64,000 bases of DNA, from positions 545 to 64,544 of the forward strand of contig CAZJJX010000006.1 in NCBI GenBank assembly GCA_964546555.1, in the 5' to 3' direction. This DNA is from an uncultured Candidatus Saccharibacteria bacterium (GTDB lineage: Bacteria > Patescibacteriota > Minisyncoccia > Phycocordibacterales > UBA5272). Of the stretch, positions 3,439 to 7,159 are shown in pieces. A program made the position numbers and the translations under genes. How positions within the stretch are numbered: the first letter of the stretch is position 1; each line of letters begins with the position of its first letter. The notes under the pieces are model-generated. The model was not told the DNA's origin, did not search any database, and saw only the letters and a list, made by a program, of their open reading frames with translations.

Positions 3439-4386
3439 TGTCAATACTAAAGTGTATATTAATCAAGCGTTGTATACACTCTTCAAGTACTTCTCAAGCC
3501 TTTCAAGCGGAGTAGATTCTAGTGTCTGATGAAATCTCGATTGATTGTAGAATGAAGTATACGCATAGAGATGCCTCCTTCTGTGCTCTCGTGAGATATG
3601 GTTAGATCTGGTTTTGGAGTGCCATTCTTCCATTAAGGTACGTATAACACGTTCTGCTTTTCCATTCGTCCATGGATGCTTCACTTGAGTAAAGGATTGA
3701 GTGAGTTTCTCTCGTCTACAGATATCAACGAAAGGATGTCCAACTCTTCCCTTGTATTCACTACCATTGTCTGAGTACACACCTCGTACAGTAAATGGCA
3801 TAGCTCTCATAACTTCTTCTAAAAAGATAGCAGAAGAGTAACTTGTCTTGTCAGGGAATATATCAGCATAAAGCCACCTTGAGTGATCATCTATTTCTAC
3901 AAAGAGATATTCCCGTGGTTGAGTAATACCTTCACCTCGAAGAAGAGGTAGTCGCTTCGTATCAAAATGAATCATTTCTCCTGGTGTATTCTTTTCATAT
4001 CTTCGTTCTCTATGCTCTTTCTTTCTTTGTTTCTCTTCCAGTATTACGATAGTCTTTTCTAGTTTCTTTAATCCTCGTTCTAGATTTCTCCATCGTTCAT
4101 TAATACTTAGTCTGTTATTAAAAATACCAAGTTTAGCATCCTTAATTGTTTCATAGACAGTTCTTCTTGTTACTTTGTATTCTTTAGCAAGTACGGTTAC
4201 ATTTCCTCGTTCTTTCTATCGTCTAAAGATCTCCCTTCGCTCATAGGGTAATAATTTGGTATTCTTATGCATACAAAAAGCGCGTAATTAGTTATTAAGA
4301 TTTGAACACCTTAATTATTACGTGCTTTTTGTATTTTTAGAATGAACTGTATACAACGCTAATTATATATACATTAATACTTGACA
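3439..4386 (-). mobile_element. IS481-family-like insertion sequence (~948 bp)
   Basis: Imperfect ~40-bp terminal inverted repeats, TGTCAA...AGCGTTGTATACA at 3439-3478 and the reverse complement at 4347-4386. They enclose a DDE/rve transposase. Confidence 0.75.
3463..4272 (-). pseudogene. IS481-type DDE transposase with an in-frame TAG at codon 19
   Basis: From ATG 4272 the frame reads MHKNTKLLPYERREIFRR-TAG(4216-4218)-KERGNVTVLAKEYKVTRRTVYE (HTH). It then continues in the same frame into the rve core (IDDHSRW, SDNGSEY, HPWTNGKAERVIRTL). Confidence 0.7.
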
Positions 4387-5202: not shown

Positions 5203-6201
5203 ATGGAAGGAAGTATCGAAAAGAAAAAACCAATGATTACTTTTAAAAATCAACCAAAACTTTCTGAGGATGAGGTTGATAAGAAACGTAATGAATTACG
5301 CGTAGCCCTTGTCTCCCATATTTCAAACTTTCTAGAGACTGATGAGTATTTTCAAGGGAAAGAAGTTATTGTCGAGTTTTCTGAGCAAGGAGTTTCATCG
5401 TTGGTGTGTTTTATTGAAACTGGTGATAAAAAATTTGTTCTAAAAATACCTTTGAATAGTACTGTTTTAGCTGGAGATGAAGCTCTCTTTCTGAAAACAT
5501 GGGAAGCATCTGGTGTTTCAGTCCCTCATGTTTTTAAAGAAGGCATGTTGGGGACTAGTTCATATCTTTTAATGCAATATATCGATGCACCAACTGTTCA
5601 GCAAAAATATAAAGATGGTAATGAAAACAAAGAGAACGGCTACTTTGAAGCAGGTAAAACTCTTCGAGTAATGCATAAACAAGAAGCGATAGGTTTCGGA
5701 AAAGTTATTAACGGAAGAGGTGAGTATGATTCTTTTGCAGAATGGTTGAATTCAGGTGATATGGAGAAAAGAGAGAAATACATACAAGAGCAACATCTCT
5801 TGGGTGAAGAACATGGATCAATTTCTCAAGCCAAAAATACTTTGATAAATTTTGCTGGGGGAAACTCTAAAAGTAGTTATTTACATTTTGATTACAGCAC
5901 GGGGCATTTGTTTGCAACCATACCATTAACTGTTTTCGATCCAGACCCGCTTTTTAATAATAGATATATAGATCTAGGCCGTACATTTGTAAACTACATA
6001 GCTCAAACAGAAGAATACCCAAAAAAACTTTTAGAAGGATATTGTGATGGAGAAGAAATAGATGAAAAAGCATTACATGCAGCAATTTTCATAAATATTG
6101 TTTATAAAATTCCTTATCAGCACCAAAAGGGAAGGATGCAAGTTATTCAGAATTTACAGAATTATTTGATACAAAATAAATATATATTAGAGTTGAAATA
6201 G
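5203..6201 (+). CDS. phosphotransferase-family kinase (APH/choline-kinase-like fold)
   Basis: FVLKIP (Lys), LMQYIDAP hinge, LHFDYSTGHLF and DPDPLFNNRYIDLG correspond to the HxD..N and DxD motifs of APH-type kinases. Confidence 0.65.
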   Translation: MEGSIEKKKPMITFKNQPKLSEDEVDKKRNELRVALVSHISNFLETDEYFQGKEVIVEFSEQGVSSLVCFIETGDKKFVLKIPLNSTVLAGDEALFLKTWEASGVSVPHVFKEGMLGTSSYLLMQYIDAPTVQQKYKDGNENKENGYFEAGKTLRVMHKQEAIGFGKVINGRGEYDSFAEWLNSGDMEKREKYIQEQHLLGEEHGSISQAKNTLINFAGGNSKSSYLHFDYSTGHLFATIPLTVFDPDPLFNNRYIDLGRTFVNYIAQTEEYPKKLLEGYCDGEEIDEKALHAAIFINIVYKIPYQHQKGRMQVIQNLQNYLIQNKYILELK

Positions 6202-6277
6202 TGACTTTACACAGCTAGTTCTGAAACCTGTTATGGTTATAAAAAATAACTATTGTAAAATATAGTTCAATAAGTTG

Positions 6278-6348
6278 CTGGGGTACAAGGACTCGAACCT
6301 CGATACTCAGGACCAAAACCTGATGTCCTACCATTAGACGATACCCCA
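6278..6348 (-). tRNA. tRNA-Gln (anticodon UUG)
   Basis: The reverse complement folds as a cloverleaf: TGGGGTA TC GTCT-AATGGTA-GGAC A TCAGG TTTTGGT CCTGA GTAT CGAGG TTCGAGT CCTTG TACCCCA G. CCA is not encoded. Confidence 0.9.
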
Positions 6349-6365
6349 ATTTATATTTACAATTA

Positions 6366-6475
6366 TGTACGTTTCGAATCTTTAGCGTCCTTCGTACTCA
6401 GGACCGCACTATTTTACCGTTCGCAGGCTCACTCGCTGATGTTCTACCACTTAACAGGACTGCGATTTCTACAGA
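6366..6475 (-). pseudogene. decayed tRNA-Gln-like copy
   Basis: TCGTACTCAGGACC (6392-6405) and CTGATGTTCTACCACTTAACAGGA (6435-6458) match the adjacent tRNA-Gln. The anticodon loop is replaced by about 33 nt, and the T-arm and acceptor cannot pair. Confidence 0.45.
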
Positions 6476-6581
6476 TTGATTACAATCTAAGAAATCGGGA
6501 GCATTAGACTACATTCGGCATTGCTGTGTCTCAGTACTGCGTTTTCAACAAAGTGAGTACACTTTAAGAAAACGGGAGGAT
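6459..6581. repeat. two paralogous 47-nt units, each containing a 35-nt hairpin
   Basis: Units at 6459-6504 and 6536-6581, with hairpins at 6463-6497 and 6540-6574. Three paired substitutions preserve base pairing. Confidence 0.65.
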
Positions 6582-6880
6582 GCCCCAAAACAGTTGTTAG
6601 TTTTCAGTGAATTCTGAATCTGATTTCTCAGCATTCATTTAGTTTTTTTACTATTCTACTATTCACTGACCACTAATAACTATCACAAAATACTACCATA
6701 TTCGTAGACTTTTTTCCATTGCTTGTATTTTGTCTTTAGCTAAAAGGCAAATGCTAAGGGCTAAATGCTTATATTTCGTGTTATTCACCTAATCCACAAT
6801 AAGACCATAAAAAGATTGCTTGCGCGAGAGAAAGAGCGAGGGGTATACTCAAGTACATTACTATTAAAAATAATTCACGT

Positions 6881-7159
6881 ATGTCTTCATCAACCTCGAA
6901 TCATGTCACGGGCGCAGAACACGAAAGTTTGCTCAGTAAGACACTTCACTCTGAAGTAGCACTGTCAGATTCAAGAATGGCATTACGTGAATTTGCTCAT
7001 AGAAAATTTATTCCTGCAATCAAGCGTGCTCAAGCAGATGATGACACACAGCAAACATTTACATCAGCAGCAACAAACCTTGCTATGGCTGGCTGGATCC
7101 TTACAGAATTAGCACTCCGTGCTGCTGAGCTTGCTGAAAAAAAGAATATTACGGTATAA
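6881..7159 (+). CDS. hypothetical protein
   Basis: 92-aa ORF with no recognisable motif. Confidence 0.4.
   Translation: MSSSTSNHVTGAEHESLLSKTLHSEVALSDSRMALREFAHRKFIPAIKRAQADDDTQQTFTSAATNLAMAGWILTELALRAAELAEKKNITV

Follow-up and report, generated by a model that had tools for sequence, protein, structure and literature searches.

Beside a tRNA-Gln gene in a 64,000-nt stretch of an uncultured Candidatus Saccharibacteria bacterium (GenBank assembly GCA_964546555.1, contig CAZJJX010000006.1, positions 545 to 64,544; the window), two similar hairpins lie one after the other, and we asked what kind of element they represent. A first-pass annotation had described them as paralogues with compensatory base changes and had implied a structured noncoding RNA specific to this locus. 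We find instead that both hairpins, here called HP1 and HP2, are members of a family confined to Patescibacteria, the Candidate Phyla Radiation (CPR), with more than 100 copies in genomes and metagenomes. [quoted passage not shown]

A repeat search of the window returned the two units as a 50-nt direct repeat (6455-6504 and 6532-6581) with 80% identity and a spacing of 77 nt, and a degenerate 43-nt consensus is present precisely two times in the 64-kb sequence, against 0.00 expected from 100 shuffles. Each unit contains a 35-nt hairpin (6463-6497 and 6540-6574) in which a 3-by-2 internal loop separates a 7-bp outer stem from a 6-bp inner stem capped by a 4-nt loop. The 77-nt period and the shared fold of the first-pass annotation are both upheld. 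The three double substitutions that distinguish the hairpins were also described correctly: A-T becomes T-A at hairpin positions 3/33, G-C becomes A-T at 12/25, and T-A becomes G-C at 14/23. Either the two hairpins are separate insertions that represent distinct lineages within the family, or one derives from the other with its pairing maintained. Both 50-mers folded much better than shuffles on either strand: as RNA, z scores were -7.4 (HP1) and -5.6 (HP2) on the minus strand and -4.4 and -3.1 on the plus strand, while folding as DNA gave -5.5 to -7.6 over both strands, with HP1 at -7.6. A covariance model built from relatives (R1) recovered HP1 at 83 bits (E = 1.4e-19) and HP2 at 65.8 bits (E = 4.9e-15), and no other position in the window scored above 12 bits. 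The two hairpins, with their tags, are as follows.

6460-6501, minus strand: HP1, CUCC-CGAUUUC-UU-AGAUUG-UAAU-CAAUCU-GUA-GAAAUCG-CAG, a near-perfect match to the family consensus (R1 hit at 6444-6507, minus strand).
6537-6578, minus strand: HP2, built like HP1 and differing from it by three compensated pairs (R1 hit at 6521-6584, minus strand).

Relatives were sought in two ways. A pattern fixing only the outer stem and the tags was searched against bacteria and archaea, with one genome per species, and returned at least 119 stretches, at least 57 of them exactly 42 nt long. Among the matches listed, nearly all of those of 42 nt were in metagenome-assembled genomes (MAGs) labelled Saccharibacteria, Paceibacterota/Paceibacteria, Nomurabacteria, Taylorbacteria, Parcubacteria, or Minisyncoccia, and matches of other lengths in other phyla had the appearance of chance. 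One identical 42-mer is found in MAGs labelled Saccharibacteria and Nomurabacteria. A second pattern, applied to metagenomes, fixed inner features only, so that flanks were recovered without bias. The 5' flanks were CTCCCGA (29), TTCCCGA (5), TTCCCAT (3), and others, and the 3' flanks included TCGCAGT (26), ACGCAGT (4), TCGCAAT (4), and ATGCAAT (3). An nhmmer profile then gave 157 copies in 135 loci (individual loci are designated L and a number below). There are few copies per MAG in the DNA examined, and 68 of 70 copies are extragenic; one Saccharibacteria MAG holds four near-identical copies of ~85 nt that share their flanking stem as well. No hairpin match was found in the viral contigs searched. 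Rfam 15 returned only tRNA at its gathering threshold in the window and nothing meaningful at E ≤ 10 for 6150-6900. Twenty related loci likewise gave only tRNAs at that threshold, and a scan of eight of them at E ≤ 1 added just subthreshold chance matches, none of them on the hairpin. We found no description of the element in the searchable literature.

Across the family, the module is a bipartite hairpin of ~42 to 47 nt with the core, written on the tRNA strand, C-UCC-CGAUUUC-UU-[6-bp stem, UAMU loop]-GUU-GAAAUCG-CA-G-U. It is usually followed by a second, short and variable mini-hairpin (hp2), for a unit of ~55 to 65 nt; the main hairpin and hp2 are unrelated in sequence. Covariation was assessed in two independently ascertained samples, with 500 shuffles, five measures, and slid pairing registers. 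In the genome set (57 copies), 96.5% of cells were paired and double changes affected 9 of 13 pairs (70 cells), the best slid register reached at most 52% pairing, and on all five measures none of the 500 shuffles scored as high. The metagenome set (57 distinct copies, aligned with the covariance model) had 98.9% of cells paired, double changes in 9 of 14 pairs (99 cells), and at most 57% pairing in a slid register; none of the 500 shuffles scored as high on four measures, and 2 of 500 did so on the fifth, the count of pairs showing a double change. The fold is thus constrained, and the paired changes in the window are of the kind seen across ~110 distinct homologues. An additional closing pair, overlooked at first pass, joins the first C of CUCC to the G of CAG (C-G in 79 copies, U-A in 11, discordant in 5). 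The earlier proposal that the fold rather than the sequence is conserved stands only in its first half, since the outer stem, the internal loops, the UAMU loop, and the CUCC and CAGU tags are conserved in sequence too: the 5' internal loop is UU in 56 of 57 copies, the terminal loop is UAAU, UACU, or UAUU, and the 5' CUCC and 3' CAGU tags are present in 52 and 54 of 57 copies, respectively. A second hairpin type, CUCCC-UGUUUG...CAAACA-GCAG (L066, L067, L069, and L132), has only the tags in common with this family. GNA triloops, which we examined as a signature of DNA hairpins, occurred in too few cases to serve as one.

Whether either strand is singled out was examined with three tests of polarity that are independent of how the copies were ascertained. 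Stem mismatches of the G.U type filled 22 cells and those of the A.C type 18 (p = 0.64). Orientation was random: the four possible arrangements relative to flanking protein genes occurred 31, 18, 18, and 15 times, and orientation relative to local GC skew was split 42 to 42. Neither strand stands out, and the hairpins behave as a dispersed repeat rather than as the locus-specific structured RNA implied at first pass. The earlier statement that the hairpins have no open reading frame (ORF) and no U-tail was borne out; reading the sequence, we see no U tract after them on either strand, and a terminator scan of the locus flagged only a weak GGGG/CUCC stem at 6573-6587. An intrinsic terminator, a GC-rich hairpin with a U tract, was accordingly rejected for the window hairpins.

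The first-pass annotation also saw no tRNA signature here, and on this point it was mistaken. The hairpins lie within a degenerate tandem copy paralogous to tRNA-Gln (~6367-6587, minus strand), whose pieces occur in the right order, split by HP1 and HP2, and had not been noticed as interleaved fragments. ARAGORN and Rfam recognize one tRNA in the window, the intact gene directly downstream of this pseudo-copy, and the degenerate paralogue goes unseen by both. Read from the 5' end of the pseudo-copy to the intact gene, the remaining features of the locus are as follows.

6579-6587, minus strand: copy of tRNA-Gln positions 1 to 9, UGGGGCAUC (real gene, UGGGGUAUC), directly 5' of HP2 (repeat D4).
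6510-6536, minus strand: long-form hp2 following HP2, UACUGAGACACAGCAAUGCCGAAUGUA.
6502-6509, minus strand: copy of the tRNA-Gln D stem and D loop, GUCUAAUG, directly 5' of HP1.
6449-6459, minus strand: degenerate mini-hairpin hp2 following HP1, UCCUGUUAAGU (compare UCCUGUUAAGGA in L109), from the family alignment.
6395-6448, minus strand: rest of the tRNA-Gln-like unit, consisting of GGUAGAACAUCAG, a 30-nt replacement of the anticodon loop, and GGUCCUGAGUA.
6367-6394, minus strand: decayed T-arm region, CGAAGGACGCUAAAGAUUCGAAACGUAC, with no acceptor 3' strand.
6277-6348, minus strand: intact tRNA-Gln(UUG), found by ARAGORN and by Rfam (RF00005, 59.9 bits).

With neither a T arm nor an acceptor 3' strand, the pseudo-copy cannot be a functional tRNA. 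GGUAGAACAUCAG corresponds to the D arm and the 5' strand of the anticodon stem, GGUCCUGAGUA is identical to the real gene (repeat D5), and the unit as a whole is homologous to units in L024 and L048. The UACUG...(A)UGUA module of the long-form hp2 also lies 3' of the hairpin in L024, L029, L048, and L077, and the junction between the D-loop copy and HP1, UAAUG|CUCCC, recurs in 10 other loci. The intact gene has its own AT-rich upstream region, with CATAAT at 6359-6364 (minus strand) read by eye. As a separate observation, 6385-6421 on the plus strand forms a GC-rich hairpin (GCGTCCT..AGGACCGC) followed by ACTATTTTACC and is terminator-like on that strand; it consists of the 3' strand of the tRNA-Gln anticodon stem and its own reverse complement, a construction kept in L024 and L048.

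This association with tRNA is general. Forty-eight of the 157 copies (31%) have a tRNA gene within 300 nt, the DNA concerned carrying one tRNA per 10 kb, and 37 of these copies are on the tRNA strand versus 11 on the opposite strand. A 5' fragment of tRNA-Gln is fused to the hairpin in the window and in L024, L029, L048, L077, L079, L094, L098, L112, L132, and L137, upstream of an intact tRNA-Gln wherever the contig extends that far. At least 10 further CPR genomes show the layout seen in the window. The window aligns with L024, L048, L029, and L079 over 215 to 306 nt (E values of 1e-18 to 1e-29). In L132, L112, and L098, each repeated unit comprises the AT-rich upstream region of tRNA-Gln, a 5' fragment of the tRNA, and the hairpin; the position of the D-loop junction varies, L132 differing from the other loci. 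In L048, three tandem tRNA-Gln-like units are identical except for an exact 64-nt module in the first, between UCUAAUG and GUAGGAC. This is a clean pair of filled and empty sites with no target duplication. Across the family, many copies are found where the D or T loop of a partial tRNA copy would be, or in the loop of a terminator-like stem. An intron was considered as well; removal of the module restored a tRNA recognized by ARAGORN in 1 of 94 copies, compared with 6 and 1 in shifted controls, so the modules are not introns.

Behind other tRNAs, the hairpin occurs in composites of ~150 to 200 nt, located ~65 to 90 nt downstream of the tRNA. The tRNA is followed by a bidirectional terminator and by the reverse complement of the tRNA 3' end from the T loop on; next come CCGCGGG, the hairpin, a conserved body, and a direct copy of the same tRNA from the T loop to the 3' end. 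One Paceibacterota MAG (L008, L021, and L064) has three such composites of ~150 nt behind tRNA-Tyr, -Arg, and -Ile, whose bodies are ~95% identical (by eye, from the alignment) and whose ends are locus specific, with the reverse complement of the tRNA end matching over 24 of 24 nt in L021. Others are found behind different tRNAs in L015, L037, L044, L054, L118, L179, and L206. Composites hold one or two hairpins, and their body contains a covarying internal hairpin and a GWAGGUUUCGAGC motif resembling transfer-messenger RNA (tmRNA). Since composites carry GUAGGUUUCGAGC...GAGAGGCGAAUCC, which recalls a 5' part of tmRNA, a tmRNA was considered and rejected: neither ARAGORN nor Rfam found one, and the presence of three composites behind different tRNAs in a single MAG also counts against it.

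An exactly complementary stem, 8 nt or longer, flanks about 17 copies; it is locus specific and mostly terminator-like. In ~9 Nomurabacteria/Paceibacterota loci, the plus orientation reads hairpin CGGGAG|TATAAT-N6-8-ATG, with the hairpin at the -35 position and the hairpin-loop xTTACA 17 nt upstream of TATAAT, which is the geometry of a leaderless promoter. We observed TATAAT or TATACT after the hairpin, with 6 to 8 nt to a start codon such as that of polA, in L031, L042, L053, L057, L061, L073, L087, and L113. Tandem arrays, in which the repeating unit is exactly the hairpin plus the second hairpin, occur in L066, L105, L175, and L215. The arrays of L066 (1304-1483, 57 nt repeated three times, identical), L105 (4540-4800 and 7400-7500, ~49 nt repeated four to five times, diverged but compensated), and L175 (2129-2231, 52 nt repeated twice) all run head-to-tail and have no spacers. 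In L215 (~6000-6105), the acceptor 3' end of tRNA-Thr(GGU), GCUCCCA, also provides the CUCCC tag of a hairpin whose start immediately follows the discriminator base, and another hairpin comes next in tandem. Where the hairpin is downstream of a tRNA, the two are in most cases separated by a terminator.

Given the absence of polarity, the sharp boundaries, the filled and empty sites, the multicopy spread, and the arrays, a small nonautonomous palindromic repeat fits these observations best. The family behaves as dispersed noncoding repeat DNA whose copies have sharp boundaries and no target-site duplication, and such an element would insert into, or survive in, the loops of preexisting stem-loops, which would explain the tRNA and terminator contexts. 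A folded single-stranded hairpin, as DNA or as RNA, might be recognized by an enzyme acting in trans, and if only copies that keep the hairpin propagate, compensatory changes would be the outcome, with no dedicated RNA from the window locus and no cellular function of the window copies themselves. Strong hairpins could plausibly also trigger template-switch-like events that duplicate tRNA pieces alongside, both directly and in inverted form. Several findings weigh against such a repeat. Within 2.5 kb of 70 copies there is no transposase, integrase, or recurrent protein that would be a candidate mobilizing enzyme, only scattered housekeeping clusters. For selfish DNA, the sequence is unusually well conserved among CPR classes, and copy number per genome is apparently low. 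The 37:11 bias toward the tRNA strand could mean cotranscription, and the unpaired UU, UCC/CA, and UAMU show conservation of the kind found in RNAs that bind proteins. Both samples came from pattern searches, which favor intact copies, and purifying selection on individual copies is possible. Finally, two other samples carry the window locus in identical form.

Several of these points would favor a functional structured RNA module, transcribed on the tRNA strand, that serves as an element for protein binding, processing, or stability or forms the core of a tRNA-Gln-derived small RNA (sRNA) made from duplicated tRNA-Gln promoters. Consistent with such a module are the strong covariation together with the conserved unpaired nucleotides and loop, the strand bias with neighboring tRNAs, the near-identity of copies across CPR classes, and the AT-rich tRNA-Gln upstream region carried by the units of L132, L112, and L098. 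The hairpin of L215, starting directly after the discriminator base of tRNA-Thr, must be part of the primary transcript; the CUCC tag is able to pair with GGGG/GGGAG of the tRNA-Gln 5' end, and in the window, the minus-strand RNA fold is the more stable. Yet G.U mismatches are balanced by A.C mismatches (22 versus 18), orientation is random with respect to protein genes and GC skew, and no conserved promoter or terminator accompanies the module, whose boundaries are sharp. Likewise, tRNA and hairpin are separated by a terminator in most tRNA-downstream cases, the minus strand showed no promoter-like site upstream of the window copies and pseudo-tRNA, and no Rfam family matches. Weighing the DNA evidence against the RNA evidence, we place the palindromic repeat at about one half and consider an RNA module possible but rather doubtful. 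It is quite improbable that the hairpins are remnants of recombination sites, that is, recognition or arm sites ending tiny integrative or invertible elements that recombine at the tRNA D or T loop and leave attL/attR-like partial tRNAs. Their abutment on pieces of tRNA with one end in the D loop (UAAUG|CUCCC) or T loop would be in keeping with this, as would the tRNA-Tyr, -Arg, and -Ile composites, with a reverse complement of the local tRNA end at the start and a direct copy at the end, and the head-to-tail units expected from repeated integration. But no tyrosine or serine recombinase was found near any of the 70 copies or near the window locus, many copies are far from any tRNA, being located in terminator-like stems or beside gene starts, the D-loop junction is not constant in position (L132 versus the others), and the hairpin does not have the core-overlap-core layout of known att sites.

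The TATAAT loci and the ~17 copies enclosed by an A-tract, GC stem, and U-tract raise the further idea of a cis-regulatory DNA module, in which the palindrome supplies neighboring genes with a -35-like element or a bidirectional terminator. Such contexts hold for subsets only; in the window, neither TATAAT nor a U-tail follows the copies, the nearest gene is more than 300 nt away, and a protein-binding operator would not predict covariation in the inner stem, so we regard this as very unlikely. A mini CRISPR array or guide-RNA scaffold of the Cas12/TnpB-like type, with the tRNA-matching sequence after CGGGAG as guide, was suggested by the two repeats with their 77-nt period and by the plus-strand arrangement, in which sequence antisense to the 5' end of tRNA-Gln comes after each hairpin. 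It is effectively refuted: the repeats are just 80% identical, the supposed spacers are pieces of a tRNA pseudogene that resumes across the hairpin, spacerless arrays exist (L066), there is no cas, tnpB, or iscB near the 70 loci, and viral matches are absent. We give limited credence, below that given to an RNA module, to the hairpin being a cis-element of an undescribed CPR-specific system, either a tiny mobile element that inserts into loops in folded tRNA genes and terminators without target duplication and triggers direct and inverted copying of tRNA ends or a universal protein-binding RNA module grafted onto tRNA-derived sRNAs and transcript ends.

The closest known kinds of elements are tagged REPs, palindromic elements of the MITE and Rickettsia type, and mitochondrial double-hairpin elements. 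Tagged REPs form the GTAG and CGTC superfamilies and have a conserved unpaired tag at the foot of the hairpin (PMC3733652). Like them, the present hairpins are small, tagged, imperfect extragenic palindromes in multiple copies, sometimes clustered or in tandem, between genes and near terminators, and for REPs, too, action as DNA or as RNA is debated. They differ in that their tags are CUCC/CAGU rather than GTAG or CGTC, that they span 42 to 47 nt with two helices and conserved internal loops, whereas REPs are 20 to 40 bp, that their copy number is apparently low, that their association with tRNA genes and fragments is strong, and that the same sequence is found across CPR classes instead of being species specific. 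No gene like that of a REP-associated tyrosine transposase (RAYT, a Y1 transposase) and no recurrent transposase-like cluster was found within 2.5 kb of the 70 copies.

Similarities to other element classes are partial. MITEs and Rickettsia palindromic elements are nonautonomous, structured, intergenic components of reduced genomes and can sit inside protein or RNA genes. The hairpin family is likewise nonautonomous, structured, and intergenic in reduced genomes; in contrast to these elements (reviewed in PMC10969869 and PMC3184786), its core has no definable terminal inverted repeats or target-site duplication, its unit is much smaller, and its flanking inverted repeats are locus specific, being terminator stems or copies of local tRNA ends. 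The IS200/IS605 palindrome-associated transposable elements (PATEs) share direct-orientation hairpins and the lack of terminal inverted repeats and target-site duplication. PATEs insert strand-specifically, on the lagging strand, and their left and right subterminal hairpins are similar, but the hairpin family has no replication-strand bias (GC skew, 42 versus 42), its HP and hp2 are dissimilar, and no TnpA or TnpB is nearby. Mitochondrial double-hairpin elements are two-hairpin units of ~50 to 60 nt, and the likeness is one of form only. Shared features are locations in intergenic regions and noncritical parts of RNA genes, small compact genomes, and tandem insertions. These elements, reviewed with other repetitive hairpin-forming elements in PMC2800124, differ in being organellar and are not known to be related in sequence to the bacterial family. 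Patescibacterial tRNA introns are group I ribozymes of at least 200 nt in the anticodon loop of functional tRNAs (PMC13011429). They resemble the hairpins as insertions in tRNA genes that hide those genes from standard tRNA finders, whereas the hairpins lie in the D or T loop, the window gave no group I signal (RF00028), and removal restores no tRNA. Integron attC sites have R''/R' boxes of the form RYYYAAC / GTTRRRY and occur in cassette arrays next to intI. This candidate was rejected, given an outer stem of CGATTTC/GAAATCG instead and no cassette arrays or integrase neighbors.

Ordinary bacterial replication genes are encoded in the window, whose organism is a CPR bacterium of the Paceibacteria type. 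Homologues of the kinase adjoining the locus are 60 to 63% identical and named Paceibacterota or Nomurabacteria. Beside the homologues P0003, P0004, and P0005 (71 to 75% identity) there is neither a tRNA-Gln nor a hairpin, and synteny is therefore silent on gain or loss. Two contigs from other samples, L219 (JGI 3300045345) and L220 (SRR23702464), are 100% identical to window positions 6296-6890, and both end within the tRNA-Gln/hairpin region; evidently, the repeat breaks short-read assemblies. These two were all that exact-protein look-ups yielded, leaving no polymorphism to read. On the minus strand, the pseudo-tRNA is closely preceded by a 21-nt inverted repeat (6592-6612 and 6661-6681), 86% complementary around a 48-nt loop, and 6591-6606 resembles the 5' part of the hairpin (repeat D2). 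A third, degenerate hairpin copy at 6591-6640, suggested by D2, was rejected, as the covariance model did not support it. An imperfect palindrome on the plus strand at 6727-6766, TTTTGTCTTTAGCTAAAAGGCAAATGCTAAGGGCTAAAT, lies upstream of a 92-amino-acid ORF (6881-7159); its 21-bit score against a microRNA model with a gathering score of 76 is at chance level. A 170-amino-acid ORF at 3463-3975 (minus strand), 2.3 kb from tRNA-Gln, contains integrase-core (rve/rve_3) domains only and is probably a remnant of a truncated IS3/IS481-type transposase.

CPR/Patescibacteria have tiny genomes with very little noncoding DNA, and almost nothing is known of their repeats or small RNAs. Against this background, a ~45-nt element absent from Rfam is alike in sequence and fold in Saccharibacteria, Paceibacteria, and relatives and recurs at tRNA genes and pseudo-tRNA arrays. 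We consider it an uncatalogued small structured interspersed repeat and think it rather unlikely that its mechanism is new. In practical terms, the element breaks assemblies, and its tRNA-like fragments can confuse annotation. For the biology of these organisms, it offers a handle either on genome plasticity, meaning the ways in which their tRNA loci come to be duplicated, scrambled, and broken, or on an RNA-protein interaction.

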